The notes beneath the pieces are model-generated. The model was not told the DNA's origin. It saw only the letters and a list, made by a program, of their open reading frames with translations, and searched no databases. The position numbers were made by a program, and so were the translations under genes. DNA of 64,000 nt, from positions 32,001-96,000 of the IMG/VR virus record IMGVR_UViG_3300035696_000017; one strand, written 5' to 3'. Of the stretch, positions 3,274 to 36,756 are shown one piece after another. The stretch's first letter is position 1; each line of letters begins with the position of its first letter. The stretch is from a virus.

Positions 3274-3349
3274 TGGCCTCCTCGGTGGGATTCGAACCCA
3301 CGACCTCTTGCTTCGGAGGCAAGCGCTCTATCCACTGAGCTACGAGGAG
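3274..3349 (-). tRNA. tRNA-Arg(CCG)
   Basis: Full cloverleaf, loop CTCCGAA, CCA encoded. Confidence 0.95.
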
Positions 3350-3350
3350 C

Positions 3351-3427
3351 TGGCCTCTCCGGAGGGATTCGAACCCCCGACGTCCGCCTTAGGAGTGCGG
3401 CATTCTGTCCAGCTGAATTACGGAGAG
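3351..3427 (-). tRNA. tRNA-Arg(CCT)
   Basis: Cloverleaf, loop CTCCTAA, CCA encoded. Confidence 0.93.
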
Positions 3428-4101
3428 ATTGGTTTGATGTCTTTGGTGAAGGCGCTGTAGTGCTCGACGTGGACCACCTTCAGCTTCGCCTGCAGCTCTT
3501 GGAAGCCAGCCTCGAAGTCTTTGAGCTCTGTGGTGTCGTTGAAGATCTTGGTGCCCGATGTCAGATAGGCCTGGATCTCATCGAACAGCGTCTTCTCGGT
3601 GTAACCCTTGGCAAACAACACGTGCCGGATGGCGTCGATGAGCTCGGGGTCGGTGTCGTTCAGGATGCCGAGGCAACGGTTGCGGTACACCTCGTCGAGG
3701 TAGTACATCGCGTGGGTCATCTCATGGACGTCGAGGTCGCCGACATCGCTCTGGACGCCGATCAGGTAGGCCCGGTCGGTCTGTGCCATCATGACGCGGT
3801 ACATGCTCAACATCAGCAGGTCGTAGTGGTTCGGGTCGTCGATGCCCAGGGCATGGACCTGGCCAATGACCTCGGCCGGGATGTTGAAACCGCCCCAGTC
3901 GCCCGACGGGTACGTGAAGGTGTTGTCCTTGTTCTGGGCCTTGACGTACCACGACATGTACTCAGCCAACGTGAACTTGCGGTCCTGGTACCGGGGGCTC
4001 TCGTAGAACTCCTGGTAGCGTAGGAAGGTCATGCACAGCTCGTACAGGTCATCGAACCTGAGCTCATACACTCCTTCACGAAGCTTGCTGAACTTGAACA
4101 T
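3418..4101 (-). CDS. hypothetical protein with HExxH motif (possible zinc peptidase-like)
   Basis: ATG at 4101 just past tRNA-Leu; VHEMTH and DEIQAY motifs. Confidence 0.7.
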   Translation of the reverse strand: MFKFSKLREGVYELRFDDLYELCMTFLRYQEFYESPRYQDRKFTLAEYMSWYVKAQNKDNTFTYPSGDWGGFNIPAEVIGQVHALGIDDPNHYDLLMLSMYRVMMAQTDRAYLIGVQSDVGDLDVHEMTHAMYYLDEVYRNRCLGILNDTDPELIDAIRHVLFAKGYTEKTLFDEIQAYLTSGTKIFNDTTELKDFEAGFQELQAKLKVVHVEHYSAFTKDIKPISP

Positions 4102-4104
4102 TCG

Positions 4105-4187
4105 TGCTAACGAAGGGACTCGAACCCCCACGCCCTTTCGGGCACCAGAACCTGAATCTGGCGCGGCTGCCATTACGCCACGTTAGC
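4105..4187 (-). tRNA. tRNA-Leu(CAG)
   Basis: Type II cloverleaf, loop TTCAGGT, variable arm GCCC-GAAA-GGGC. Confidence 0.95.
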
Positions 4188-4204
4188 GTGTGTCTACATC
4201 CTAC

Positions 4205-4630
4205 TCAACCCTCTTCCTTCTTACACTCCTCTCGGACCTCCATCAGGATCCGGCCCAGCCAGTTGCTGCCCCGGCCCCGGCAGACGCCCCAGAACGTGTC
4301 GTTCCAGGTGTTGCCCTCGACCAGCTTGGCGTCCTCGGTGGCGATGAGCATCGCCCGGAGGATCGGGTTCTTGAACTTCTCCCGCACGAACTTGCGCATC
4401 AGGTCGACCTTGACCTCGTCCCAGTCGGGACGGAGCTGGACGGCCTTGCCCAGCTTCTTGGCCTCGCCGGGGCGAGCGACCTCCCGGATCAGCTTCCGGG
4501 TCGCGGGGTCCAACGTCTTGGCGGCCTGGTAGGCGTGCTCGACTGAAGGGTACCGCTCTCCATCGATCCAGATCGACGCTTCGTGGAAGTTGCTCAGGAA
4601 GCCGAAGTCGCCCCGGAAGCTGTCAATCAC
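4205..4630 (-). CDS. NADAR (YbiA-like) family protein
   Basis: FLSNFH, YPSVEHAYQAAK, PGEAKKLGK, LVEGNTWNDTFWG, GSNWLGRILMEVR; GTG start at 4630 overlapping the upstream stop. Confidence 0.92.
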   Translation of the reverse strand: MIDSFRGDFGFLSNFHEASIWIDGERYPSVEHAYQAAKTLDPATRKLIREVARPGEAKKLGKAVQLRPDWDEVKVDLMRKFVREKFKNPILRAMLIATEDAKLVEGNTWNDTFWGVCRGRGSNWLGRILMEVREECKKEEG

Positions 4631-5294
4631 CGTCTCGGTCTGCGACGGGGACCCAGGAAGCGTCGGGAGCTGGGGTTGTTGTAGTTCCGTCAGCTTCGAT
4701 AGAACGTCGGATGGCTGCAAGGAGTTCTTCTTCTCGTTGTCGTTGCTCAAGTTGGTCCTCCGGGATGAGCTTGGTGATCGCCTCGGAGTAGCAGCGACTG
4801 AAGCCGGGTGCGTACTCGTCGAGACTCGCCTCGAAGTAGTTGCAGCGCTTCAGCCTGATCGCTGTCTCGTGTGGGTTGCCCCATTCGAACGAGGCCAGCG
4901 CTGGCTGGCAACGCTTGATGACTTCCCAGTAGGCAGCAGCACCGTCCTCGAAGTCGAAGAAGGCCCGGTACCAGTGCTTGTCGCCCCTGTTGAAGTAGAT
5001 GAGCTGCCCCTGTGCTGAGGCCCCGACGTTGCCGAGGTTGTGGTTGAAGGACCACTTGCCCCCGCCGTTCTCGAAGGCGACCTGGCCCCACGCCATCGCA
5101 AGCCTGCGATCGCTGGGGTACTTGCCGAAGACCTTGAGGTGACCCTCCCGTAGAGCGTGGAGCAGCTCCATCCGGGAGAGCGGAGTGCGCACAGTCGGGA
5201 CGTGTTCCGACGGGTCCGCCGAAGCGAGGGGCGCTGCGGTGGCGATGACGAGGATGAGGATGAACAACGTTGCCAGTCTCTTCGCTGGTGACAT
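4623..5294 (-). CDS. secreted glucosaminidase/lysozyme-like cell wall hydrolase
   Basis: Signal peptide; GQVAFENG (catalytic E), HNLGNV, YRAFFDFEDGAAAYW, LKRCNYF resemble FlgJ/GH73-type folds. Confidence 0.6.
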   Translation of the reverse strand: MSPAKRLATLFILILVIATAAPLASADPSEHVPTVRTPLSRMELLHALREGHLKVFGKYPSDRRLAMAWGQVAFENGGGKWSFNHNLGNVGASAQGQLIYFNRGDKHWYRAFFDFEDGAAAYWEVIKRCQPALASFEWGNPHETAIRLKRCNYFEASLDEYAPGFSRCYSEAITKLIPEDQLEQRQREEELLAAIRRSIEADGTTTTPAPDASWVPVADRDGD

Positions 5295-5347
5295 TGCCAC
5301 ACTCTACCGAGTGCGACTGACGTTGTTTCGTCACTTTCCGTTGAACA

Positions 5348-5893
5348 TCAGGCATCAGGTGCCTTTGGTGGAGTCTCGCCGCCTTGTGGGGACGAACTAT
5401 TTGCACCATCTGACGAGGTGCAGAGCTTCCAGGGCACCCCTGCCTTGACCACGCGGTCGAGCATGTCAGCCGTCCCGCGCGAGTCTTGGATGTTGTTGTG
5501 GAAGGCAAGGCACAGGTCGATGGGCTCTTCGGGCTTGTTCTCCACATCCAACATCTGTTGGTTGCGGATCGGACCCGCGGCTTTCTTGTGCTTCACCCAG
5601 TCGGCCGGGTAGGGCCTGACCTCAAACCGCAACGCTTCAGCGACTGCGGCGCAGATGATGTCTGCACCCCTGCACGCTCCGTGCACGAGTATGGTGCCAG
5701 GCCTATAACCCTTCAACTCTTCGACGACCCGAGTGATGTCTGACCACTCGCGGTCACCGGTGACCAGGATCTTGTGGACGTACTTCTCCGCGGGCAGCTT
5801 CCGGCGTTCTTCCGGATCGCGTTGCGTGTAGTAGCGCCGGTCAGATTTGGTCCGCCTGATGTCGCCCGTTCGTCGCCGTGGTTCGTCTGCCAT
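5348..5893 (-). CDS. SLOG-family (DUF2493/YspA-like) protein
   Basis: ILVTGDREW, LVHGACRGAD, ADWVKHKKAAGPIRNQQML, SRGTADM. Confidence 0.85.
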   Translation of the reverse strand: MADEPRRRTGDIRRTKSDRRYYTQRDPEERRKLPAEKYVHKILVTGDREWSDITRVVEELKGYRPGTILVHGACRGADIICAAVAEALRFEVRPYPADWVKHKKAAGPIRNQQMLDVENKPEEPIDLCLAFHNNIQDSRGTADMLDRVVKAGVPWKLCTSSDGANSSSPQGGETPPKAPDA

Positions 5894-6565
5894 CAGTCCC
5901 AGTCACCATTGTACCACCTCGACAGCCGGCTTTTTACACCCGTCCGGTGATCGGTGACCTGGTCGTCTTGCGTACGATACGTCCGCACCTTGTCGCCTCG
6001 TTGGCCGGTGCCGACCTGCTGCTTGCGTTCAGCTTCCTTTGCAAGACGCTGGCGTTCACGTTCGGCATCGTACAGCCTGGCCGCCATGACCTTCATAGCC
6101 AGGGCCTTGTTCTGGCTCTGGCTCCGCTCGTTGTCGATGCGGACCTGCAACCCCGTCGCCTTGTGGGTGACGATGACGCAGGACTCGGTCTTGTTGCGGT
6201 TCTGCCCGCCGGGACCCGAGCCCCGTGCGGTGGCGATGTCAACGTCCTGGTACGTCAGCTGCTTGCCGACGACGGTGTCAGGATCGAAGACGGCGACAGT
6301 CACCGTTGACGTCTGGACCCGTCCCCGCTTCTCAGTGGGAGGGATCCGCTGCCATCGGTGACCACCGCTCTCGTGCTGGAATGTCTGCTTGGCGCCCGTG
6401 CCTGAGAAGGCGACGGTGACCATGCCCGGTCGCTCGTCGATCAGCTCAGACTCAAAGACCCCTCCGCGACGCCACGTTGGCGTACGCACGGAGCTGTTCC
6501 TTGACCAGCAGCTTTGCGTCGTCGCCGCCCTCGGCGGCTCGGATCTCGATGATGACCGTTTCCAT
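5893..6565 (-). CDS. class I peptide chain release factor lacking domain 1, expressed via +1 programmed frameshift at 6457-6452 (about 223 aa)
   Basis: Frame 0 from ATG 6565: METVIIEIRAAEGGDDAKLL..RRGL-TGA; +1 frame continues ESELIDERPG..HRWQRIPPTEKRGRVQTS..SGPGGQNRNK..RSQSQNK..VRTY..VTDHR. Confidence 0.9.
6451..6466 (-). promoter_or_regulatory. RF2-type +1 frameshift cassette (internal SD GGAGG, 3-nt spacer, CTT TGA)
   Basis: Minus strand CGGAGG GGT CTT TGA G; same layout as bacterial prfB (AGGGGG TAT CTT TGA C). Confidence 0.88.
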
Positions 6566-6568
6566 GTT

Positions 6569-7015
6569 TCAGACCCCGGAAGGAGGAGCGTAGTGCTCCT
6601 CGAGGATGGTGCGGTACACCCGCATATTCGGGTGGTATCGCTTGAAGAAGTAGGTGTCGTCTCCCGTCCAGATTTTCGAGAGGGCGGCGCCGACGGCCGG
6701 CGAGCGGCTCAGGCCAGCGTCACAGTGGACGATGAAGCGTTGGGCCTCAGGGTACGTCTTGACGAGAGCCAAGATCTGGCGCGCTTGGCTAGGCTGGAAG
6801 AGGTCGGACTCGAGCTCCTCGATCCCGGGGAAGTGCTGGTCAAGATCGTGGAACGTCAGCCTCAGGATCTTGAGAGTGTGTTCGTTGGTCTTGATCTTGG
6901 CGCCCTCGGGCAACGCGGGGTCGCCCGGCGTCGTGATCGACACGATGATGTGCGGGACCTCGTGGGGCTCGATCGCCTCGATGGCCTGCCTGCTGTAGAC
7001 GAAGATGTCCTTCAT
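6569..7015 (-). CDS. predicted protein tyrosine/dual-specificity phosphatase
   Basis: CX5R loop VHCDAGLSRS; IVSIT and LRLTFHD motifs. Confidence 0.85.
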   Translation of the reverse strand: MKDIFVYSRQAIEAIEPHEVPHIIVSITTPGDPALPEGAKIKTNEHTLKILRLTFHDLDQHFPGIEELESDLFQPSQARQILALVKTYPEAQRFIVHCDAGLSRSPAVGAALSKIWTGDDTYFFKRYHPNMRVYRTILEEHYAPPSGV

Positions 7016-7320
7016 GGCTCCACGGCAGTCAGGATACCATAGACGTGGTCGAGCTTGCACCACCCGTTGACGTGTCCGTGGTTGTTGCTGATCTGGTACC
7101 TGCCATCGCTGCCGATAGCAGTGACCTTATGAAGCATCTGCTGGCCGTTGACCTTGCAGAGCACTGCGTCCCCCACCATGGGCACACGCCCGTTGAGAGG
7201 CTCGACAGTGACCAGCTGGCCCGACTCGATGATGGGTCGCATGCTGTTGCCATGAGGCCTGAATTTGACCGTCTTGCCCTCCTTGAGGGCCTGGACGTGT
7301 GTCAGTGTTCCGTCTCCCAT
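7012..7320 (-). CDS. S24/S26 peptidase-like protein
   Basis: GNSMRPII..GD.VL..LHKV. Confidence 0.7.
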   Translation of the reverse strand: MGDGTLTHVQALKEGKTVKFRPHGNSMRPIIESGQLVTVEPLNGRVPMVGDAVLCKVNGQQMLHKVTAIGSDGRYQISNNHGHVNGWCKLDHVYGILTAVEP

Positions 7321-7363
7321 GGCTCCAACCTTACCACCCGAGAATACTCGAGTGCACTCTCTG

Positions 7364-7436
7364 TCGTGGCTGCGGGACTCGAACCCGCTACGAGGTGCTT
7401 ATGAGACACCCGCCTATCCGCTTCGGCCTAACCACG
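7364..7436 (-). tRNA. tRNA-Met/Ile2(CAT)
   Basis: Cloverleaf, loop CTCATAA. Confidence 0.88.
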
Positions 7437-7437
7437 G

Positions 7438-7512
7438 TGCTGACGGTGGGAGTCGAACCCACAGTGAACTGGTTTCTAGGACCAGCGCGTATGCCTGTTC
7501 CGCCACGTCAGC
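7438..7512 (-). tRNA. tRNA-Leu(TAG), short variable arm, C33
   Basis: Leu-type D arm; loop CCTAGAA. Confidence 0.85.
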
Positions 7513-7594
7513 AGGAGCTCGCTATCAGGGACGCTCGGCGGGCAACAGCGCTATCTCTATCCGACTATGATGCGGACCCCCTACGAAACTTGTG

Positions 7595-7894
7595 TCAGCG
7601 TGTCGCGTCCCAAGGCGCGGGCTTCTTGGCCGCGGGCATGCCGCCCGGCGCAGGTTCCCAGCTGCCAGAGTGCAAGTCCTTCTCGCTGATCTTGTGGATC
7701 TTGCCTTGCTTGTCGCCAGCGACGATGGTCTGGCCAGCCTCACCTGGAACGACCTTGAGGACCTTGACGAAGGTGGGTGCCTCCGGGTCAAACGACCCGA
7801 CGTACCGCAGCACTTGGCCGGGCTTGATGTTGAGGCTGCTGTACTCAGCAACTTCACTCAGAATGCGTCGCAAGGTCTTGAGGCGGATCTTCAT
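7595..7894 (-). CDS. hypothetical protein with MKIRLxxLRRILxE N-terminal motif
   Basis: ATG 7894 preceded by ATACTTA motif. Confidence 0.7.
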   Translation of the reverse strand: MKIRLKTLRRILSEVAEYSSLNIKPGQVLRYVGSFDPEAPTFVKVLKVVPGEAGQTIVAGDKQGKIHKISEKDLHSGSWEPAPGGMPAAKKPAPWDATR

Positions 7895-7905
7895 GCCTCT
7901 AAGTA

Positions 7906-7982
7906 TGGTCTCCCCAGCAGGACTCGAACCCGCAATCTCCACGTTCGAAGCGTGGCGTCGTATCCATTGGAACCATGGGGAG
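7906..7982 (-). tRNA. tRNA-Arg(TCG)
   Basis: Cloverleaf, loop CTTCGAA, CCA encoded. Confidence 0.9.
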
Positions 7983-7988
7983 GTCGAG

Positions 7989-8339
7989 GTGGAGGACCGG
8001 TAAGCCGGGTTCTGTCGTTGGACGATCATTCCTCTGGGATGCGTGTTACCACGCACCTCAAGCAGCAACCCGGAAGCATCGGCCGAGCAGACCTCAAACG
8101 CTTCCTGTTTGCCTTGCTACGGATGGGGTTTGCCACAAGGGACTGTCACCAGCCCTGTCGGGGTCTCTTACACCTCGGTTTCGCCCTTACCTGAGCGAGG
8201 GGCGAACCCCAAGCCATCGGCGGTCTGTTTTCTGTTGCACTGTTCCGTCGCGTTACCGCGCCTGGCCGTTAGCCAGCATCCTGCTCTGTGTAGCCCGGAC
8301 TTTCCTCTGCATGGGTGCAGCGATCGTCTGGTCTTCCAC
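7989..8339 (-). ncRNA. rnpB: RNase P RNA, bacterial A-type
   Basis: Conserved GAGGAAAGTCCGGGC, AGTGCAACAGAAA and AACAGAACCCGGCTTA segments; P1 helix GTGGAAGACC/GGTCCTCCAC. Confidence 0.95.
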
Positions 8340-8425
8340 GGTGCCAACGACAGGAGTCGAACCTGCCCGGGCTTGCGCCCATGAGCTTCTGAGGCTCACG
8401 TGTCTACCAAATCCACCACGTTGGC
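8340..8425 (-). tRNA. tRNA-Leu(CAG)
   Basis: Type II cloverleaf, loop CTCAGAA. Confidence 0.93.
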
Positions 8426-8430
8426 ATACG

Positions 8431-8793
8431 TTACGTTATGTCTACGGCGACCTTCATCGCCTTTCCTCGAACCAGCTGGATCTTGTTGATGAAGACCAGG
8501 GTGTTGATAACCCCGACGTCACCCATCGGCCAACGCTGCATCTCGTTCTGCAGCTTCTCCGACATCTTCTCGCTGAGACCGGTCTCGCCCTGGGGACCGT
8601 CGACGACGACAGCAACGTCGATGTCGCTGCCCTCGTGGAACTGGGTCCTGTCGAGGACGCTGCCCACAACGTAGACCTCCCGGCATGGGACGCCGAGGAC
8701 GTCAGTCGCAGTGTTCCGGATGAAGCCAGCGTTCTGCTTCACCGTCTCGATGGCTTCCTTGCGGTACTCCTCAAGCTCCGGGTTGCTGCTCAT
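8431..8793 (-). CDS. minimal nucleotidyltransferase (Pol-beta superfamily)
   Basis: VYVVGSV..GSDIDVAVVV (hGS..DhD motif). Confidence 0.8.
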   Translation of the reverse strand: MSSNPELEEYRKEAIETVKQNAGFIRNTATDVLGVPCREVYVVGSVLDRTQFHEGSDIDVAVVVDGPQGETGLSEKMSEKLQNEMQRWPMGDVGVINTLVFINKIQLVRGKAMKVAVDIT

Positions 8794-9025
8794 TCTTGGT
8801 CTTCCTCACAGATAGGTAGGTCCCCAGCGCCGACCCCGCAGCCGCTGCCAGGATGAGCCAGTGGTTCCCCACGTACTCGATGACAACGATGCTGTTGGCG
8901 AAGATGATGCCCACCGCCCAGAACGATGCCCTCCCGGGCTCTCGTGCTGCTGCGGCGATGGTGTACTTGCCGAAGAAGTAATCGACGGCGACCATCGCTG
9001 AGAAGACGATGAGCGCTTGCAACAT
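8771..9025 (-). CDS. small membrane protein
   Basis: Three hydrophobic segments; GSALGTYLSV terminus. Confidence 0.7.
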   Translation of the reverse strand: MLQALIVFSAMVAVDYFFGKYTIAAAAREPGRASFWAVGIIFANSIVVIEYVGNHWLILAAAAGSALGTYLSVRKTKNEQQPGA

Positions 9026-9029
9026 TGGG

Positions 9030-9113
9030 TGCCGACGACAGGAGTCGAACCTGCCCGCCCTTTCGGGCACCAGTCTCTCAAACTGGCGTGTCTACCAAAT
9101 CCACCACGTCGGC
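9030..9113 (-). tRNA. tRNA-Leu(GAG)
   Basis: Type II cloverleaf, loop TTGAGAG. Confidence 0.93.
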
Positions 9114-9128
9114 GTTGTGTTACATGGG

Positions 9129-9203
9129 TGAGCCCAGCGGGATTCGGACCCGCGTTCTCTGGTTGAAGGCCAGGCGTCCTAGACCGGACTAGACGATGGG
9201 CCC
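9129..9203 (-). tRNA. tRNA-Glu(TTC), C33 and C55
   Basis: Glu-type D arm, loop CCTTCAA, T loop TCCGAAT. Confidence 0.85.
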
Positions 9204-9204
9204 A

Positions 9205-9280
9205 TGGGGTGACCGAGGAGGATCGAACTCCCGACAGCCGGGGCCACAACCCGGCGCTCTACCACTGAGCTACGGTCACC
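9205..9280 (-). tRNA. tRNA-His(GTG)
   Basis: G-1, C73, loop TTGTGGC, CCA. Confidence 0.95.
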
Positions 9281-9477
9281 ATGCGGTTCAGTTCGGCAGG
9301 TCCTTCGAACGTGCCTTGCTGTTCCTCTTGTGGTCGCGGTCCTCGTCATCACGATTGTGAGCGTCGTGGTGGTTCTTGTAGAGGACCATCCCGACAACGA
9401 TTGCGACAACGATGGCTGCGATCTTGAGCTTGTTCTTCATGTTCATATCGTACAACGGGGTGAAGAGAAGTGCAAGG

Positions 9478-9549
9478 AGCTGGCGAAGGGACTTGAACCC
9501 CCAACGACCTGTTTACAAAACAGGGGCTCTACCATTGAGCTACACCAGC
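9478..9549 (-). tRNA. tRNA-Thr(TGT)
   Basis: Cloverleaf, loop TTTGTAA. Confidence 0.93.
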
Positions 9550-9552
9550 ATC

Positions 9553-9633
9553 ACCGTTCACCTACTGCACAGGATTCGAACCTGACTGCCCACCTTCGAG
9601 GGGTGGTGCTCTTCCGACGAGCTCGCGAATGGT
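9553..9633 (-). ncRNA. tRNA-like RNA with non-standard acceptor ending GGTGAAC
   Basis: D, anticodon (CCTCGAA) and T arms present; 8-nt bulge, then ACCATTCGC/GTGAACGGT stem. Confidence 0.55.
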
Positions 9634-9641
9634 TACTAGGT

Positions 9642-9716
9642 TGGAGCGGGCGGCGGGATTCGAACCCGCGTGTCCAGGCTGGCGACCTGGTGCCTGTGCC
9701 TCTCGGCCACACCCGC
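9642..9716 (-). tRNA. tRNA-Gly(GCC), C33
   Basis: GCGGGTG acceptor, U73, loop TCGCCAG, CCA. Confidence 0.88.
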
Positions 9717-9721
9717 GTACG

Positions 9722-9815
9722 TCTTTCACTTCCGGTCTGACGGGATTCGAACCCGCACGCTCTTGCGAGCAGCCGGTTTTCTGCCGGCCGTGTCTACCAT
9801 TCCACCACAGCTGCC
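9722..9815 (-). ncRNA. tRNA-Leu-like RNA with broken acceptor stem
   Basis: Leu D arm, variable arm and T arm intact; loop CAGAAAA; 3' end GGAAGTGAAAG. Confidence 0.55.
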
Positions 9816-9843
9816 CGTTTCATGGGCGTAGTTACTTGACGGG

Positions 9844-9916
9844 AGCTAGCCACGGGAGTCGAACCCGTCATCTCGTCCGTACCAAGGACGCGTGTTCCCA
9901 CGCCTACTCGGCTAGC
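9844..9916 (-). tRNA. tRNA-Thr(GGT), weak D arm
   Basis: Loop TTGGTAC; acceptor GCTAGCC/GGCTAGC. Confidence 0.8.
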
Positions 9917-9920
9917 GTTT

Positions 9921-10042
9921 CGTTTTCACCTGCATGGGACTCGAACCCACAAGGCCTACTGCGATACCCCGTCACCGGGAGCACTCGGCCAGGCTCGTTT
10001 TTTTAGACGTGCCGCGTATGCCATTCCGCCACCCAGGAAGCG
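9921..10042 (-). ncRNA. tRNA-Leu-like RNA with about 40-nt extra arm and non-standard ends
   Basis: D arm GGCGGAATGGCATACGC, A-rich enlarged anticodon loop, T arm GTGGG-TTCGAGT-CCCAT, 3' GCAGGTGAAAACG. Confidence 0.55.
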
Positions 10043-10067
10043 CCCGGGGTCACATGGTTACTCACGG

Positions 10068-10141
10068 AGTCGAGGGTCGGATTCGAACCGACGAATGCCT
10101 GTGTTGCAGACAGGTCCCTTGAACCACTTGGGTACCTCGAC
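10068..10141 (-). tRNA. tRNA-Cys(GCA)
   Basis: Loop CTGCAAC, U73. Confidence 0.92.
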
Positions 10142-10151
10142 ATAGGGGATG

Positions 10152-10463
10152 TCACATGCCGCCGCCCATCCCATGGCGGCCGTTGTCGTTGTTGCTCTTG
10201 TTGTTGTACGAGACGCCGCGTGACTTGCCGTAGCTCGGCACGGGCGGTGACTGATCAAGATTGTCCTGGAGGGGCTTGTCATCAGCGTCATCCCGAGAGT
10301 TGGGTCCCTTGGGAAGACGTAGGTTGCCCAGGTCTGTGGGGTGGACGTCCGCCATCTTGTCGGGCACGCCGTAGACGTGCTCGACCTTGTCCTTCGGCCA
10401 TCCGTAGACTGCCTTGCCAGCCTCACGGATGACGCGGCGTAGATCTCCGAGGCGAACCTTCAT
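10152..10463 (-). CDS. hypothetical protein with MKVRLGDLRRVIRE N-terminal motif
   Basis: ATG 10463 preceded by ATACTTA. Confidence 0.7.
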   Translation of the reverse strand: MKVRLGDLRRVIREAGKAVYGWPKDKVEHVYGVPDKMADVHPTDLGNLRLPKGPNSRDDADDKPLQDNLDQSPPVPSYGKSRGVSYNNKSNNDNGRHGMGGGM

Positions 10464-10480
10464 CCTCGTAAGTATCCAGG

Positions 10481-10551
10481 TCCCCACGGCCGGACTCGAA
10501 CCGGCACCTCCTGGGCTTCAGCCAGGCGCTCGACCATCGAGCTGCAAGGGG
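10481..10551 (-). tRNA. tRNA-Phe(GAA), atypical (C8, acceptor mismatch)
   Basis: Loop CTGAAGC. Confidence 0.75.
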
Positions 10552-10552
10552 G

Positions 10553-10624
10553 TGGTGGGTATCGGAATCGAACCGATGACGCCCGGGTTTCAACCGAGTG
10601 CTCTACCGACTGAGCTAACCCACC
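10553..10624 (-). tRNA. tRNA-Phe(GAA)
   Basis: Loop TTGAAAC. Confidence 0.9.
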
Positions 10625-10627
10625 GTG

Positions 10628-10699
10628 TGGGGTGACCGACGGGAATCGAACCCGCGCTAGTCTGGGTCACAACCAGACGACCCGCCAATGGGCGGTCAC
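10628..10699 (-). tRNA. tRNA-His(GTG), shortened D region
   Basis: Loop TTGTGAC, C73-CCA; D arm CCC-ATTGGC-GGG follows the acceptor directly. Confidence 0.7.
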
Positions 10700-10701
10700 A
10701 G

Positions 10702-10773
10702 TCAGAGAGGTGGGACTCGAACCCACGGCTTCCTGGCTCCGGACCAGGCTGTCTGCCGCTGACTTACTCTCTG
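10702..10773 (-). tRNA. tRNA-Pro(CGG), C33
   Basis: C1-G72, A73, loop TCCGGAG. Confidence 0.85.
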
Positions 10774-10847
10774 GAGCTGGCGATGGGAGTCGAACCCACG
10801 TGTTCCTCTTTACGGGAGAGGTGCACCTGCCTCTGTGCTACACCAGC
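10772..10847 (-). tRNA. tRNA-Thr(CGT), C33
   Basis: Loop CCCGTAA; its CCA overlaps the next tRNA by 2 nt. Confidence 0.88.
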
Positions 10848-10857
10848 ATACGTTTCG

Positions 10858-10931
10858 TCGGTGTGGTGGGATTTGGACCCACGATCTTCTGCTCCCGAAG
10901 CAGACGCGATACCAGGCTTCGCTACACACCG
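10858..10931 (-). tRNA. tRNA-Pro(CGG), C55
   Basis: Loop TTCGGGA; T loop TCCAAAT. Confidence 0.9.
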
Positions 10932-10935
10932 AAGT

Positions 10936-11248
10936 CATCGACCGTCCAACCGTCCCGGTGAGGATGTCACTCCTCACACCTACCTCGTGTCAGTCACGTT
11001 GTTCCGTCACATGGCTCAGATGCTAGCTAGGCACCCTCAACACCACGGCGGGATTTTACCCGCATGCACCCAAGCTCTGACCGTTAGTAGGTCGGTGCAC
11101 CATCCCGCTGCCGAGTAGGAAACTGCCTGATCGGTGCGCTAATGACGTTACGCTTCCACACGCATCGGACCTGACCAGTTTCCGGTGCCAGTGCCTTTCC
11201 CCGAGCAAGGGATGGGCTTTCAGCCACGTGACGGTCGGACGGTCGATG
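10936..11248 (-). ncRNA. 313-nt structured RNA, possibly raiA-motif-like
   Basis: 19-bp closing helix (10936-10954 with 11230-11248), several internal hairpins, GTGGCTGAAAGCC start, CATCCC/GGGATG long-range pairing. Confidence 0.65.
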
Positions 11249-11323
11249 GTCGGAGTGGCGGGGTTCGAACCCACGATCTCTCGGCCCCCAGCCGAGCGCG
11301 ATACCAGACTTCGCTACACTCCG
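11247..11323 (-). tRNA. tRNA-Pro(GGG)
   Basis: Loop CTGGGGG, CCA. Confidence 0.93.
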
Positions 11324-11482
11324 ATGAATTGCTACTGTACTACACCTTCTTGCGATTTGGACAACCGTGCGTTTCACGGTCTCCACCTCAGTTGGCGTCA
11401 GCTAACACCCGTGAGGGAGAGCCGCTCAAGACGCGCCGTCCGGTATCCCGTTAGGACATCGTCAAACCTGAGGAACGCAGAG

Positions 11483-11555
11483 TCGAAATGGTGGGACTCG
11501 AACCCACGATCTTCTCCGTGTGAAGGAGTTGTTCTTGCCGCTGAACTACATTCCG
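11483..11555 (-). tRNA. tRNA-Val(CAC)
   Basis: Loop TTCACAC. Confidence 0.88.
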
Positions 11556-11582
11556 AAGACTTGAAAGCCTCCTTGGCTTCCG

Positions 11583-11656
11583 TCGGAGTGGAGGGACTCG
11601 AACCCTCGGAAAACGTGCACCCAAAGCACGCGCCATGGCCGCTAGGCGACACTCCG
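11583..11656 (-). tRNA. tRNA-Pro(TGG)
   Basis: Loop TTTGGGT. Confidence 0.9.
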
Positions 11657-11846
11657 ATTCTGCTTGTCTTCTGCCGGTTGTCTCTGCCGGCTGGCCGTTC
11701 AACCCCTATGGGGTGTGGCAATCGAAGCGGCAGCACGCCCGAGGTGGACGTGAGGCCGCCGACGCAAAAGCGCCGTCCTTCACTCCTACCTGTTAGCATG
11801 CTCGACATCATGACTGATCTCGCTTCAATTCGGGCAGTTGCCCTAG

Positions 11847-11918
11847 TGACCCCTACGGGACTCGAACCCGTGTTTTTACCGTGAGAAGGTAGCGTCCTAG
11901 CCGCTAGACGAAGGGGCC
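11847..11918 (-). tRNA. tRNA-Glu(CTC)
   Basis: Glu D arm, loop TTCTCAC. Confidence 0.92.
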
Positions 11919-16168: not shown

Positions 16169-16786
16169 TGTTCAGCCCTTCGCTGCGAGGATGCAGCCTC
16201 CGATGTTGCCCAGGATGAGGAAGACGACCATGCTCCATCCCATGAAGGCCCAGGACGGCGAGTGGATCGCCATGCACCAAGCCACGATGAAGAGGCCCCA
16301 GAAGAACATTGCCCCCATGGACCCGACCATGCTGCCGACTACGTACTTGAACCCCTTTGGGAATAAGAGCCAAAGGCCGATGCAGGCACCCGCTGTCCAG
16401 AGCAACTCCATTTGTACATCCTACCAGGACTAGGCCGCGGCTTGCACCCGGATCTTGCGACCACGATTGATGGCATTCCCGAGGCATTCGACTGAGCCAC
16501 AGTGGCAGTCGAAGTGTTGGATGTCGTGAGTGTAGCCCTCGCGGTTCGCTTGCGCGTGCTTTACCGCCTCTTCCCAGCGAATGTGTCGCATCCGAGACTG
16601 GGGCATGAAGGCCCGACCACAGCGACTGATGTGCATGTGCCGACGGTCGCGTTGTCGGAGCCACTTCGCTGGCGTCTTTCGCTTACGTTCCATGTTTTCC
16701 TCAGCGCCGGGTGGTGGATGCGATCCACTCTTCGAGCCTTCTGGACGTCTCCAGGGACCCACCCTTCGGGGCCTACCAAGCGTTCG

Positions 16787-16857
16787 TGCGACGTATGGGA
16801 TTCGGACCCATGTCTCCGGGCCAACGCCCGGTGTCCTGTCCGCTAGACGAATGTCGC
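16787..16857 (-). tRNA. tRNA-Glu-like gene with aberrant anticodon loop (no assignable anticodon)
   Basis: Glu-type D arm and acceptor; anticodon arm CCGGGC-GTTG-GCCCGG. Confidence 0.6.
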
Positions 16858-32642: not shown

Positions 32643-33000
32643 CGGGGCCCCACCCGCAGGAGGTTGGGGCTGACGCGCCAGGTCATGTCATGGTTGATGA
32701 ACTTGAGAACGTCGAGGAGTGTGGTTGCCATGGTCCCAGTCTACCATTGGAACCGTCAGGCTTGCACCATCTCGAGGTGGTCCTTGTACACTGCGTGGAC
32801 CTCACCTTCGTGGAGAACTACGACGTGGTCACGCTTCGGGTGACGCCGGATGACGTCAACGACGACACCCTTGTGCAGGGTGCCGGAGGGGACCATGTGC
32901 TCCACCACGTCCCACAACTGGGCGGTGAGCTTCGCGCGCGCTTTGAACATTTGACGATTCTACCCGGCTGGGCAGACTCGTTGCACAGCGTGAAAGAGGG

Positions 33001-33071
33001 CTGGGGCGGAGGGATTCGGACCCCCATCATTGGTGTCAAAGGCCAAGGTCCTGCCGTTAGACGACACCCCA
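33001..33071 (-). tRNA. tRNA-Gln(TTG), C55
   Basis: U1-A72, loop CTTTGAC. Confidence 0.88.
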
Positions 33072-33098
33072 ATGTGTTGACATCTGCGTTCCGTGTAG

Positions 33099-33169
33099 CT
33101 GGCCCGGAAGGATTCGAACCTTCATGACGACGGTCAGAGCGTCGCATCCTGCCGTTAGATGACAGGCCA
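33099..33169 (-). tRNA. tRNA-Gln(CTG)
   Basis: Loop CTCTGAC. Confidence 0.92.
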
Positions 33170-33183
33170 ATGTGTTGTCGAGG

Positions 33184-33252
33184 TCGCTCCGACTGGACTC
33201 GAACCAGTGGCTCCCGCTCCATGGTAACGGGTGTCCGCCGAGATGCGGAGCG
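33184..33252 (-). tRNA. atypical tRNA-like gene (CAT) with vestigial D arm
   Basis: Acceptor CGCTCCG/CGGAGCG-A, arm CCCGTT-ACCATGG-AGCGGG, T arm. Confidence 0.55.
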
Positions 33253-33254
33253 AT

Positions 33255-33353
33255 CGTCACGTCGAACGGAATCGAACCGTTGCTCGTAGTAGCAGCCGCG
33301 AGCCTTTCACAGGATTCTGTGTTTTTCTACGACCTTTCCTCGAACGACGTGAC
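33255..33353 (-). ncRNA. tRNA-like RNA without D stem and with a branched arm replacing the anticodon arm
   Basis: GTCACGTCG/CGACGTGAC stem, T arm AACGG-TTCGATT-CCGTT, helix TCGTAG/CTACGA. Confidence 0.6.
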
Positions 33354-33428
33354 TGGCAGGTGGACTGGGACTCGAACCCAGGTAGCGAGTTTTGGAGGCT
33401 CGCGTCCTAGCCGCTGAACGACCCACCT
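33354..33428 (-). tRNA. tRNA-Trp(CCA)
   Basis: Loop CTCCAAA, G73-CCA. Confidence 0.92.
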
Positions 33429-33440
33429 ATGTGTGAAAAC

Positions 33441-33515
33441 TGGCACCAACGACGGGACTCGAACCCGCGTATTCTCCTAGACAGGGAGACGTCCTAGCCG
33501 CTGAACGACGTCGGT
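33441..33515 (-). tRNA. tRNA-Asp(GTC)
   Basis: Loop CTGTCTA, G73-CCA. Confidence 0.9.
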
Positions 33516-33525
33516 ATGCAGAAAC

Positions 33526-33599
33526 TGGCGAGCACGGCGGGATTCGAACCCGTATACGCTTCCTAGACAGGGAAGTCGCCTCCCATGGCGCACGTGCCC
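33526..33599 (-). tRNA. tRNA-Asp(GTC)
   Basis: Loop CTGTCTA, G73-CCA. Confidence 0.85.
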
Positions 33600-33609
33600 A
33601 ATGTTGTGA

Positions 33610-33685
33610 TGGTGGAGCTCACGGGGATCGAACCCGTCACCTCCTGCTTGCAAGGCAGGCGCTCTCCCAAATGAGCTAGAGCCCC
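33610..33685 (-). tRNA. tRNA-Ala(TGC)
   Basis: G3-U70, loop CTTGCAA, CCA. Confidence 0.96.
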
Positions 33686-33698
33686 ATACGTATGGAAC

Positions 33699-33971
33699 AT
33701 GAAACCGTGGGAAAAAGAACACGATGAAGACCCGTCCCAAGAGGGCGGGATGGCACTTTCAAGCCTGAAACGCACCGCCAAGATGGCTAGAGAGTTGGTT
33801 GATCTAATCGGACCCAATGACACCCTACCCGGGTGGGTACAGGCTAAGCTGACCACGGTGTACGAGGATCTCAATGATGTTCACGGTTACATGATGGGTT
33901 TGGATCGCGGTGAAAGCCAGAGTGAGGTTCAAGAGGCTATCAACCAGCTAATCAAACGTCATCGCCGTTGA
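33699..33971 (+). CDS. hypothetical protein (EGGMA..LPGWVQAKLT motif, recalled from large-phage proteins)
   Basis: Plus-strand ORF preceded by ATACGTA motif. Confidence 0.65.
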   Translation: MKPWEKEHDEDPSQEGGMALSSLKRTAKMARELVDLIGPNDTLPGWVQAKLTTVYEDLNDVHGYMMGLDRGESQSEVQEAINQLIKRHRR

Positions 33972-33972
33972 A

Positions 33973-34311
33973 TCACAGCTTGCCCTTGTGGTTCATGCCG
34001 AGGCCGGCTTCGTGGACCTTAGTGAACTTGACGTTGGGAGTGCGCTTCTGGAAACCAAGCTGGCAAGACTTGCCAACCATCATGCCAGAATTGACCCACC
34101 ACATCTGACGATACTCTTCACGGTCAGCCTCGGAATCGAACTTGAGAATGGTGACACCAGCAGCTTTACCGTCAGCCGACTGAAGGCCAAGGTACTTGGG
34201 AACCGACTCTGAAGAACAATCAGGACAACAGGTTATGAGCCCGCCGACGCGGCGTTTCTCAGGTGACATCGGGTCGTACTCGCAATTGCAAACAATGCAG
34301 GTTCGCTCCAT
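33973..34311 (-). CDS. Cys-rich hypothetical protein
   Basis: CIVC..CPDC; class A promoter upstream. Confidence 0.7.
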   Translation of the reverse strand: MERTCIVCNCEYDPMSPEKRRVGGLITCCPDCSSESVPKYLGLQSADGKAAGVTILKFDSEADREEYRQMWWVNSGMMVGKSCQLGFQKRTPNVKFTKVHEAGLGMNHKGKL

Positions 34312-34352
34312 GAGTAGCCCAGTGTACCACAGCCAGGTAATGCTTTGCACTG

Positions 34353-34429
34353 TGGAGCTGGAGGGAGTCGAACCCTCAGTCACTCAGGTTCCATTGTCGG
34401 CTTTCCTGTGCGACTCGCCTTTCAGCCCC
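34353..34429 (-). ncRNA. mini-tmRNA-like RNA (tRNA-like domain only, Ala identity)
   Basis: GGGGCTG/CAGCTCC-A acceptor with G3-U70, unpaired D loop AAAGGCGA, P2-like helices GTCGC/GTGAC and CAGG/CCTG, T arm GAGGG-TTCGACT-CCCTC. Confidence 0.75.
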
Positions 34430-34439
34430 GTGTTTTCAG

Positions 34440-34512
34440 TGGAGCACGCGGGACTCGAACCCGCCACCTCAACGTTGCGAACGTTGCGCTCTCCCAGATG
34501 AGCTAGTGCCCC
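34440..34512 (-). tRNA. tRNA-Ala(CGC)
   Basis: G3-U70, loop TTCGCAA. Confidence 0.94.
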
Positions 34513-34514
34513 AT

Positions 34515-34589
34515 TGGCTGCGGGGGAAGGGTTTGAGCCTTCGTCTCCGAGCGTTGGATGCTCGGCGCCTTCGATCAGACCACCCCGCA
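34515..34589 (-). tRNA. atypical tRNA (CCA anticodon, 6-bp anticodon stem)
   Basis: CCGAGC-ATCCAAC-GCTCGG; T loop CTCAAAC; G73-CCA. Confidence 0.55.
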
Positions 34590-34590
34590 G

Positions 34591-34663
34591 TGGAGCTAGC
34601 GGGATTCGAACCCGCCACCTCTTCGATGCCATCGAAGCGCTCTCCCGAATGAGCTATAGCCCC
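34591..34663 (-). tRNA. tRNA-Ala(GGC)
   Basis: G3-U70, loop ATGGCAT. Confidence 0.94.
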
Positions 34664-34664
34664 G

Positions 34665-34737
34665 TCACCCGAGTGGGACTCGAACCCACGTTCTCTACCG
34701 TGTCAGGGTAGCGATCTCGCCGCTGATCTACCGGGTG
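34665..34737 (-). tRNA. tRNA-Val(GAC)
   Basis: Loop CTGACAC. Confidence 0.9.
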
Positions 34738-34793
34738 TTGGCCGGTCTCTCCCGGCAGTCATAGCGCGCCTGATGGGCACGCTCGGTTCGTCT

Positions 34794-34895
34794 CTACCTT
34801 CCCTTCCGCTTGTTGCGGTACTGCCGTCGCCAACAGGGCCGGCACATGTATGCCATCCCCGCGAGCTGTGCAGCGATCTGACACCACTTACACAT
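34794..34895 (-). CDS. 33-aa CxxC..CxxC basic peptide
   Basis: MCKWCQIAAQLAGMAYMCRPCWRRQYRNKRKGR; strong SD AAAGGAGG upstream. Confidence 0.5.
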   Translation of the reverse strand: MCKWCQIAAQLAGMAYMCRPCWRRQYRNKRKGR

Positions 34896-34977
34896 TCCGC
34901 GCCTCCTTTCTTGCGAAAGGGGGACGCTACGAATCTCTACTGTGTACCATGCTGAAGCACCTCTGGTTGGGTGAGGT

Positions 34978-35054
34978 TGGTTGCAAGCCCTGGGAGTCGA
35001 ACCCAGTGTCTCCGGGTTATGGGCCCGGCGAGGAAGCCGTTTCTCTCTGCTGCG
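34978..35054 (-). tRNA. initiator-like tRNA(CAT), degenerate, C33
   Basis: C1:A72 mismatch, GGG/CCC anticodon stem, loop CCCATAA, CCA. Confidence 0.7.
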
Positions 35055-35055
35055 G

Positions 35056-35129
35056 TAACGGGAGGTGGATTTGAACCACCGACCTCTGGGTTATGAGCCC
35101 AGCAAGCTACCTGGCTGCTCCATCCCGCT
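35056..35129 (-). tRNA. tRNA-fMet(CAT)
   Basis: Initiator-type D arm GGAGCAGCCAGGTAGCT, GGG/CCC stem. Confidence 0.9.
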
Positions 35130-35130
35130 G

Positions 35131-35202
35131 TGGGTCCACCCGGATTCGAACCGAGATCACGGCGCTTAAAAGGCGAGTCTCTGCCTGTTGAGTTATGGAC
35201 CC
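35131..35202 (-). tRNA. tRNA-Lys(TTT)
   Basis: Loop CTTTTAA; weak anticodon stem. Confidence 0.8.
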
Positions 35203-35208
35203 GTGTGT

Positions 35209-35287
35209 TGCGTTTCACCTGCTCGGATTTGCACCGCTCCTCCAGCTTTCAAGGGCCGGCGTGCTGACTGTTACACTAGCGATCGTA
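35209..35287 (-). ncRNA. tRNA-like RNA ending CAGGTGAAACG
   Basis: D arm GTGT/GCAC, arm CCGGC-CCTTGAAA-GCTGG, T-like loop TGCAAAT. Confidence 0.5.
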
Positions 35288-35317
35288 TGGGATCGTGACC
35301 GTGGTTACTTGCAACGG

Positions 35318-35388
35318 AGCCCCCGCTTGGAGTCAAACCAAGACCTTCGGGCCGCAAGGCCCGACGCTCTGCACTGAGCTACGGGGGC
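35318..35388 (-). tRNA. tRNA-like gene with sealed anticodon loop
   Basis: Normal acceptor/D/T arms; TCGGGCC-TTGC-GGCCCGA. Confidence 0.6.
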
Positions 35389-35393
35389 GTAAG

Positions 35394-35468
35394 TGGTGGG
35401 GAGGGGAGGATTCGACACCTCCAACCGCCGGGCTAAATGCCCGGTGCTCTATCTTGAGCTACCTCCCC
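35394..35468 (-). tRNA. tRNA-like gene with aberrant anticodon and T loops
   Basis: CCGGGC-ATTTA-GCCCGG; 8-nt T loop; CCA. Confidence 0.6.
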
Positions 35469-35489
35469 GTGACTACATTCTACACCTTG

Positions 35490-35563
35490 CCTCCCCGAGT
35501 GGATTCGAACCACCGACCTCCACCTTCGCAGGGTGGCGCTCTATCCAGCTGAGCTACGGGGAG
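35490..35563 (-). tRNA. tRNA-Arg(GCG)
   Basis: Arg-type D loop with A20, loop CTGCGAA. Confidence 0.9.
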
Positions 35564-35564
35564 A

Positions 35565-35700
35565 TGTCATCGTTGGACGTTCACATTCACAGGTTCACTG
35601 CCTGCCTCGCTCCTAAGCGTCCCGGGGATGAGTGCTCCGAAGAGCGGCCCCCAGGGCCCGATTCGAACGGGCTCAGTTTTGGGTTGTTACTTGTCGCGAC
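35565..35700 (-). ncRNA. circularly permuted tRNA mimic (YrlA Y-RNA-like topology)
   Basis: Order T arm, acceptor stem closed by a UUCG hairpin, D arm; flanked by ACTG/CAGT. Confidence 0.55.
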
Positions 35701-35702
35701 GG

Positions 35703-35778
35703 TGCATCTGGTGGGATTCGAACCCACAACCTACCGGGTAAGAGCCGGTTGCTGCTGAACCAGTTGAGCTACAGATGC
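35703..35778 (-). tRNA. tRNA-Lys(CTT)
   Basis: Loop CTCTTAC. Confidence 0.88.
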
Positions 35779-36182
35779 GTTGATGAAAGTTGAGTTGCTA
35801 CGTACGTTTCACTTCGGTACGACGGAAATCGTGACTTTTCTCGTCGTGGACATTTGGGACGACCAATGTTGCGGCCGCAGTATGTCGGGGTCTGCGCGTG
35901 ACAGTTCGGACAGATAAGACCAAGATTGGTCTTGTCACCATTCGTTGGGTTGCCATCACGGTGTTCAAGTTGAAGTGGGATGGGTTTGCCACGCCATTCT
36001 GTCAACCCACAATCTTCACATCGGTGACCTCGTTCAAAAATCAGTCGAGCTTTTTGAGCACCTTCGGAACGAATGAGAGCGAAGTCTCGATGAACTCGTC
36101 GCTTGTGTCCTGCTAGCTTCTGAGGTGAGTCAAACACATCTCCGCAGATCGAACACTTGCCGTCTGCACGCTTGTAGGACAT
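35769..36182 (-). CDS. HNH endonuclease with N-terminal C2H2 finger (free-standing homing-type)
   Basis: CSIC..HKRRVH; CEDC..LQLEHRDGN..N..LICPNCHAQT; lower GC than flanks. Confidence 0.9.
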   Translation of the reverse strand: MSYKRADGKCSICGDVFDSPQKLAGHKRRVHRDFALIRSEGAQKARLIFERGHRCEDCGLTEWRGKPIPLQLEHRDGNPTNGDKTNLGLICPNCHAQTPTYCGRNIGRPKCPRREKSRFPSYRSETYVATQLSSTHL

Positions 36183-36213
36183 ACGCTCATTCTACACTAC
36201 ATGAATGTGCTAG

Positions 36214-36287
36214 TGGGTCTGATGGGACTCGAACCCATATCTCACCGCTTAAGAGGCGGGACTCTGAACCAGTTGAGTTACAGACCC
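36214..36287 (-). tRNA. tRNA-Lys(CTT)
   Basis: Loop CTCTTAA. Confidence 0.9.
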
Positions 36288-36341
36288 AGATTGCGAGGTA
36301 GTTCTGCTGAGAGTTGGTGCCTCGCATCACGTTTGCTCTCA

Positions 36342-36417
36342 TGGCTGGGGAAGAAGGACTCGAACCTTCGTGTGGTAGGGTCAGAACCTACTGCTGTTGC
36401 CGCTGAGCCATTCCCCA
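36342..36417 (-). tRNA. tRNA-Gln(CTG)
   Basis: U1-A72, loop TTCTGAC, CCA. Confidence 0.88.
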
Positions 36418-36481
36418 ATGGGCCGACGCGGGGGAGAAGTGTTGTGCATCTCCATCCTTACGGGGGTCGCCGCGTCAGCTG

Positions 36482-36564
36482 CTCATGGAGTAGGAATCGA
36501 ACCTACCTACGGGTTTCCCCTGGCCGGTTAACAGCCGGCTGCCTGGCCAATAGGCTATCCATGA
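36482..36564 (-). tRNA. tRNA-Asn(GTT) with long variable arm
   Basis: Loop CTGTTAA, G73; extra arm GGG-GAAA-CCC. Confidence 0.85.
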
Positions 36565-36631
36565 ATGGCGGTGACGGCCAGGGGCGGACTCGGCTCTCAT
36601 CGAGCTCTGTCGGACCATAGCAGGTCACCAG

Positions 36632-36704
36632 CTGGCACAGCAGGCTTCGAACCTGCATCCTCCTGGTTAACAGCCAGGCGCACTGCCAATTGTGCTACAT
36701 GCCA
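36632..36704 (-). tRNA. tRNA-Asn(GTT)
   Basis: Loop CTGTTAA. Confidence 0.9.
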
Positions 36705-36756
36705 AAACGGAACGCAGATTGTCAAGGATCGGAGAGCAGCTTGCGCTGATCTTCGG

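Follow-up and report, generated by a model that had tools for sequence, protein, structure and literature searches.

RNase P RNA, the ribozyme that processes newly made tRNAs, is counted among the hallmarks of cellular life. A gene for this RNA among the tRNA genes of a presumed phage raises the questions of whether the gene is genuine, whether the DNA that carries it is viral, and what such an RNA would do during infection. We examined one such locus in a 64-kb stretch of DNA (the window), which comprises bases 32001–96000 of a 114,053-bp IMG/VR record that CheckV rates as 31% complete. A motif scan of IMG/VR yielded two relatives, a complete genome (G001) and a 23.6-kb contig (L024). We confirm a phage-borne type-A RNase P RNA that is genuine and under selection, and we propose a role for it in the maturation of phage tRNAs.

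Identity and fold of the RNase P RNA gene

A search of the whole window with Rfam cmscan returned a single match to RNaseP_bact_a (RF00010), at 7985–8339 on the minus strand. The match covers model positions 1–367 of 367 and scores 276.6 bits against a gathering score of 100 (E = 3e-89). The first-pass annotation had described a complete A-type rnpB directly between tRNA-Leu and tRNA-Arg and had named a search of this family as a check; the full-model match above the cut-off, together with the ARAGORN calls of both tRNAs, bears out that description. The span given there, 7989–8339, runs from the first to the last base of P1, and the Rfam match adds a 4-nt 3′ tail. The gene for this bacterial type-A RNase P RNA is thus 355 nt long, with P1 extending from 8339 to 7989 and the tail following. 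It is the only rnpB copy in the 114-kb record.

The flanking tRNA genes, both called by ARAGORN and Rfam on the same strand as rnpB, lie extremely close to it. tRNA-Leu(CAG) (8340–8425, minus strand) ends with the discriminator A followed by CC, an incomplete CCA, and the base after this CC is G1 of the RNase P RNA, in P1, leaving a spacer of 0 nt. The same junction measures 0–1 nt in both relatives (three assemblies). On the other side, 2 nt (7983–7984, minus strand) separate the 3′ end of the rnpB match from the 5′ end of tRNA-Arg(UCG) (7906–7982, minus strand), which has a 7-bp acceptor stem and an encoded CCA and starts 6 nt past the end of P1. The distance from rnpB to tRNA-Arg is 591–652 nt in the two relatives compared with 2 nt here; as far as these genomes tell, only this phage has the tight 3′ junction, so a 3′ end released by RNase P is not something that the lineage conserves. 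In the 23.6-kb relative, the 652 nt before tRNA-Arg are filled by a 194-aa open reading frame (ORF) antisense to rnpB (L024 7767–8351, minus strand). A consensus scan found no promoter-like or terminator-like sites adjoining rnpB on its strand. Upstream of tRNA-Leu, a 120-aa ORF with a nucleotidyltransferase fold (8431–8793, minus strand; PF01909, E = 4.3e-5; 76% amino-acid identity in the complete relative) has its stop codon 5 nt before the tRNA gene. Downstream, a possible 99-aa ORF (7595–7894, minus strand) starts 11 nt after tRNA-Arg; tblastn found no match to it in the relatives except to the part of a longer frame that overlaps rnpB.

ARAGORN detected 48 tRNA or tRNA-like genes in the window, all on the minus strand and arranged in two arrays, both of presumed substrates: array 1 (3274–11918) holds 24 tRNA genes and contains rnpB, and array 2 (32998–37145) holds 23 tRNA or tRNA-like genes. 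The whole 114-kb record has 58 tRNA genes, which cover all 20 amino acids. An earlier impression that the tRNAs are tightly packed and sometimes overlapping was correct, as 11 of the 47 gaps between successive tRNA genes in the window are 3 nt or shorter and three of these are overlaps. Many tRNAs of the window end with an incomplete CCA.

The window holds other unusual elements. Three tRNA-like genes have irregular anticodon loops to which ARAGORN assigned two-base ‘anticodons’ (16786–16857, 33182–33273 and 35316–35388, all minus strand). Small ORFs with matches to NADAR, SLOG (YAcAr), S24-peptidase-like and minimal nucleotidyltransferase domains are interleaved with the tRNAs (4205–4750, 5348–5893, 7012–7320 and the 120-aa ORF at 8431–8793, all minus strand). 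Also inside the tRNA array is a 198-aa ORF (5893–6489, minus strand) that matches RF-1 (2.9e-28) and PCRF (5.6e-11), a short class-I release-factor-like protein that is 85–88% identical in the two relatives. The complete relative has a tRNA with anticodon CUA between two tRNA-Ala genes (36781–36856, minus strand; L049). This phage has tRNA-Trp(CCA) at the same position (34515–34589, minus strand), with a similar acceptor stem, and the CUA tRNA of the relative looks like a Trp-like amber suppressor. TAG stops end 22 of the 157 ORF calls in this record.

We mapped the structure of the RNA by hand onto the type-A scheme, with the Rfam alignment as a guide. A fold computed with RNAalifold from three sequences was discarded, because its P4 was a nested helix that took the place of P2. 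In the hand-mapped structure, all helices from P1 to P18 can be drawn, with 104 of 108 pairs canonical; coordinates below are on the minus strand. The catalytic-core pseudoknot P4 is formed by its 5′ strand (CR-I, 8294–8302, with a bulged U at 8299) and its 3′ strand (CR-V, 8002–8009), with 8 of 8 pairs, and both strands are invariant in the three phage relatives and across 23 aligned rnpBs. The P6 pseudoknot, in which the P5–P7 joining region pairs with loop L17, is likewise complete (8282–8286 with 8085–8089; 5 of 5 pairs) and is 100% paired in the three-phage alignment. P6 and the other type-A-specific elements P13/P14, P16/P17 and P18 can all be drawn with canonical pairs. The bases that are invariant across the 23 rnpBs are all present: both P4 strands, AGCAA in J5/15, and AGA..AU between P18 and P2.

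The specificity domain (P10, P11, P12, P13 and P14) occupies 8126–8246; its P12 is lengthened by an insertion capped with a UUCG tetraloop. P18 (8038–8057) has 8 bp, one of them with a compensatory change. GNRA tetraloops are found in L9 (GUAA), L14 (GUGA) and L18 (GUAA), loops that make long-range contacts in type-A RNAs. The helix map and the sequence place a GGU motif at 8068–8070, within the GGGU (RNA nt 269–272, window 8068–8071) of the 3′ side of the internal loop of P15; the motif is known from bacterial RNase P RNAs, where it base-pairs with the RCCA at the 3′ end of pre-tRNA (PMC11143913). The structure departs from the type-A standard in few places. The P3 hairpin (8307–8320) is short, with 5 bp and a 4-nt loop compared with 9 bp and a 6-nt loop in the Rfam consensus, and this shortened region lies near the protein-binding site. 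Three pairs are non-canonical, an A–C in P1 and an A–G in each of P11 and P17, and both A–G pairs are common to the relatives.

Comparison within the phage lineage indicates selection on the RNA. At 91.2% identity, rnpB is better conserved between this phage and the complete relative than neighbouring protein genes (70–80%) or the adjacent tRNA-Leu (70%). Mapping the three phage rnpBs onto the structure revealed 11 pairs that changed on both sides, located in P1, P2, P5, P7, P9, P16, P17 and P18, with 96.9% of pair cells occupied by standard pairs. Shuffled controls gave a mean of 4.0 both-side changes and none of 500 reached 11, and controls in which partners were slid by 1–3 columns gave 0–2. 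The sample is small, at three sequences only; even so, its direction is clear and points to a fold preserved inside the phage lineage.

Viral context, companion genes and origin

The complete relative places the locus in a phage genome. It measures 369,475 bp, has direct terminal repeats (an IMG/VR class that is not provirus) and is rated 100% complete, and 95 of the 157 ORFs of our record are collinear with it, in the same order and at 36–90% amino-acid identity. It encodes a T4-type large terminase (56 bits to PF03237) that is 38.6% identical to the TerL of a Flavobacterium myophage and has matches in 3011 phage records, and it carries 55 tRNA genes and a tmRNA gene. PHROGs matches in the record itself include a T4 gp63-like RNA ligase, a second RNA ligase, a DNA ligase, an HNH endonuclease and a sigma factor; six large ORFs at its left end match no PHROGs family. 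Neither megablast of 20 kb of the window nor tblastn of a 1267-aa protein gave a match in 50,697 phage records.

The sequence is also contained in peat metagenome runs of several studies. A 3.7-kb contig spans 5000–8400, and with it both rnpB junctions, without differences (its run is possibly the source of this DNA), and a 433-nt contig from a second study (7885–8317) covers the tRNA-Arg/rnpB junction, also without differences. These contigs bear on the possibility that the record is a cellular contig, or a chimeric assembly of bacterial rnpB and phage DNA. The conserved P4 region does draw reads of many organisms, with depths of 47–65 in the bin 8216–8416 in three of four runs, which speaks for such an artefact. 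Nevertheless, two further assemblies, made from other samples and including the complete terminal-repeat genome, have the gene at the corresponding position, a single contig bridges both junctions, and the 114-kb record has its 58 tRNA genes. Because of the collinear complete phage genome, its terminase and the junction-covering contigs, a cellular or chimeric origin is very unlikely, and the viral nature of the contig, which the first-pass annotation had assumed subject to confirmation, is established.

We next consider the protein subunit. The same annotation had seen no RnpA gene, and this observation holds: six-frame searches with PF00825 gave no match at E ≤ 0.1 in the record or in the complete 369-kb relative, nor in three other viral records. 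A control search with this profile matched in 10 of 14 reference genomes, and a very divergent RnpA could be missed by a Pfam profile. RNase Z (TIGR02651) and tyrosine integrase (PF00589) are absent from the contig and the complete relative. The complete relative does have a 394-aa open frame of the CCA-adding enzyme/poly(A) polymerase family (179391–179774, minus strand, L206; PF01743, 117.6 bits), in a region not covered by our 31% fragment. Such an enzyme fits the many tRNA genes with incomplete CCA. The tmRNA gene of the complete relative (265088–265457, minus strand; L061) has the predicted tag ANDNGFADDVRLAA; the matching part of the genome of this phage lies outside the 114-kb fragment.

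A close bacterial donor was not found. The best blastn identity to the phage rnpB was 73% in Actinomycetota (301 genomes), 74% in Pseudomonadota (301) and 70% in Acidobacteriota (201), and Verrucomicrobiota (151 genomes) gave no match at E 1e-30. Nine genomes of the Actinomycetota sample are unpublished and enter only into its size. With at most 74% identity in about 950 sampled genomes of four phyla, the gene is not a recent capture. An exact-word scan of genome contigs with a 16-mer from the P15 region hit 120 places, none in rnpB; these were chance matches and uninformative on the donor. In a quick maximum-likelihood tree, the three phage rnpBs form a clade (SH-aLRT 99) that stands beside the rnpBs of other large viral contigs, with weak support, and is not nested in the sampled bacteria. 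The tree, in which another tRNA-array clade falls among the actinobacterial sequences, suggests several independent captures, of which the one in this lineage would be old. With such thin sampling and so short a marker as rnpB, the host stays unresolved.

Other large viral contigs also carry rnpB. IMG/VR was scanned for exact motifs from the two P4 strands, which hit 40 and 105 places, and Rfam identified full-length RF00010 matches in ten contigs of 100–497 kb and one further match clipped by the end of the locus. By motif and ARAGORN, rnpB lies within a tRNA cluster in at least 16 further viral contigs. Three arrangements from other huge-phage lineages resemble the one described here: tRNA-Thr, rnpB and tRNA-Gly with gaps of 0 and −1 nt; tRNA-Cys and tRNA-Gly each 6 nt from the rnpB between them; and a tRNA-Trp that directly abuts rnpB. 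Some copies in large viral contigs are reduced, two lacking P13/P14 (463 and 101 kb) and three lacking P18 (372, 497 and 31 kb). The reduced copies lie at L012 4030–4350, L019 4462–4786, L027 6583–6880, L007 12670–13008, L041 3911–4249 and L043 65–392. The copies in the 372- and 497-kb contigs are identical to each other, and that in a 202-kb contig is only 298 nt long; the latter contig also has a group I intron match (RF00028, 68.4 bits; L027 3325–3528, minus strand) 3 kb from rnpB.

Sequenced phages agree with the initial expectation that rnpB is uncommon in viruses: blastn found an rnpB-like segment in 6 of 50,697 phage records. Two of these are doubtful, one being a Salmonella contig and one having its match among bacterial-looking genes, and the remaining four, uncultured-phage or faecal contigs, were not inspected. 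The match among bacterial-looking genes is that of ‘Microcystis phage MaAM05’ (MW495066.1 112823–117978; L207), which was not counted as a cultured phage with rnpB, because genes annotated mtgA, engB and fabI surround the match and this part of the record looks bacterial.

Proposed role and alternative explanations

We think it likely that the RNA, which belongs to a lineage of tailed phages with genomes of about 370 kb, is an active ribozyme that is co-transcribed with the tRNAs, released by tRNA processing and joined by host RnpA, and that it matures the packed phage tRNAs. Catalysis and expression are inferred here, as we have no assay and no RNA data. Co-transcription is also an inference, drawn because the spacers are 0 and 2 nt and no promoter-like or terminator-like site was found; having no detectable promoter or terminator of its own, rnpB would probably be transcribed within a polycistronic tRNA transcript. 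Its ends, on the same inferential footing, would be formed by processing of the neighbouring tRNAs. One and the same cut would generate the tRNA-Leu(CAG) 3′ end and the 5′ end of rnpB, and RNase P cleavage at the 5′ end of tRNA-Arg, 2 nt off in this phage, would make the 3′ end of rnpB, so that the ribozyme would retain 6 nt beyond P1. The freed RNA could then fold into the canonical type-A ribozyme, a fold that sequence and covariation show to be possible, and would most likely bind host RnpA. The host protein is the likely partner because the phage encodes none that we could detect; its use remains inferred, with support by analogy from the known activity of a hybrid holoenzyme that combines B. 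subtilis RNA with E. coli protein (PMC11143913).

The benefit to the phage, likewise inferred, may be that the resulting enzyme raises or secures RNase P capacity in infection, given 58 tRNA genes that are packed, often spacer-less and CCA-incomplete. At near-zero gaps, a single RNase P cut would yield the 5′ end of the downstream tRNA together with the 3′ end of the upstream one. The CCA-adding-type enzyme and the RNA ligases encoded elsewhere in the lineage may work alongside the ribozyme. The short P3 and the three non-canonical pairs count against this reading, as does the unknown host, which makes RnpA compatibility a matter of inference only. A further possibility, which we raise tentatively and regard as doubtful, is that the phage has its own form of RNase P, tuned to spacer-less, CCA-incomplete tRNAs and to the odd tRNA-like elements. 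Such an enzyme would excise its own RNA, work when the host enzyme is limiting or disabled, and use host RnpA or possibly need little help from it. If this were true, the ribozyme would stand with the CCA-adding-type enzyme, the ligases, the tmRNA and the release-factor-like gene at the centre of a virus-borne pathway of tRNA maturation and repair.

Other explanations accept an active or at least functional RNA and differ in what it is for. The phage may keep an active RNA as a substitute for a host RNase P RNA that is lost, degraded or attacked in infection, by phage shut-off nucleases or by a host abortive-infection system, rather than for capacity. The evidence for an active ribozyme applies equally to this explanation, and the two RNA ligases, the tmRNA and the release-factor-like gene look like insurance against an attack on the translation apparatus. 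However, there is no evidence here of host RNA depletion, no nuclease aimed at the host RNase P RNA was identified, and bacterial RNase P RNA is a stable RNA; we consider this explanation unlikely. Alternatively, the RNA could act as a decoy that sequesters host RnpA or pre-tRNAs and halts host tRNA maturation without any need for catalysis. The phage has no detected RnpA, so any RnpA-binding phage RNA competes with the host RNA. A protein-binding surface alone would suffice for this, whereas the catalytic core, the specificity domain, P6, the GGU motif and the GNRA contacts are all conserved and kept by compensatory changes, and the 58 tRNAs of the phage themselves need RNase P, which makes a decoy improbable.

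Explanations without a working RNA fare no better. That host rnpB was captured along with tRNA genes and is carried as a functionless passenger has some precedent, since phages do acquire host tRNA-region DNA, and the clade of another set of tRNA-array rnpBs (162-, 190- and 31-kb contigs) nests among actinobacterial sequences, suggesting repeated captures. Yet rnpB is the most conserved segment of the region even though phage proteins have diverged to 40–90% identity, eleven of its pairs carry compensatory changes, and the lack of any bacterial rnpB above 74% identity in the genomes sampled excludes a recent capture; we see only a slim chance that it is a passenger. Many short IMG/VR contigs have rnpB at the contig end, which might hint at an rnpB-derived sequence retained as a site for integration, a use to which tRNA and tmRNA genes are also put. 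This idea is hardly tenable, as the gene is full length rather than a 3′ fragment, neither the contig nor the complete relative has a tyrosine integrase, and the ends of that relative are direct terminal repeats, not those of a provirus. We thus return to an active, co-transcribed ribozyme working with host RnpA as the reading that we favour.

Comparison with known systems

We found no paper describing a virus-encoded RNase P RNA in a full-text literature search, which left subscription journals largely uncovered, and the papers on huge, jumbo and mega-phages that it returned make no mention of RNase P RNA. A 2024 review discusses phage tRNAs solely as RNAs that the host enzyme processes and lists the handling by RNase P of multimeric precursors with almost no spacer as an open question (PMC11143913). 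A natural tRNA–ribozyme–tRNA transcript, as inferred here, would offer a study case for such near-spacerless precursors. With a complete copy under selection in a huge phage, the parts of the translation apparatus known to be carried by viruses come to include a catalytic RNA besides tRNAs and protein factors, and RNase P research gains natural variants whose evolution took place in the absence of a gene for the cognate protein. A testable idea follows as well: for huge phages with dozens of expressed tRNAs, the 5′ maturation of these tRNAs may be limiting. The locus shares the style of huge-phage genomic islands, with tRNAs, a tmRNA (in the relative), a release-factor-like gene and RNA ligases.

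The phage RNA belongs to the same type-A family (RF00010) as E. coli M1 RNA, the product of rnpB, as its 276.6-bit match attests. It differs from the bacterial type-A RNA in being encoded by a virus with no rnpA detected, in having no promoter or terminator of its own that we could find, in lying 0 and 2 nt from tRNA genes and in having a P3 of only 5 bp. The tRNA cluster of phage T4 resembles that of this phage in its multimeric precursors, its spacers of a few nucleotides and its tRNAs that in some cases lack an encoded CCA, and T4 tRNAs need RNase P and CCA addition (PMC11143913). T4 depends wholly on the host ribozyme, whereas this phage supplies its own catalytic RNA and has a set of tRNA genes about seven times as large; unlike T4, the complete relative also carries a CCA-adding-type enzyme. 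A parallel in gene arrangement is yeast mitochondrial RPM1, which has a tRNA gene on either side and is released when these tRNAs are processed. Like the phage rnpB, RPM1 is an RNase P RNA gene in a small genome without a gene for the protein subunit, and its product, Rpm1r, arises by maturation of larger precursors (PMC3790967). The yeast RNA is AU-rich and highly reduced, and its protein, Rpm2p, bears no relation to RnpA, whereas the phage RNA is a full bacterial-type ribozyme.
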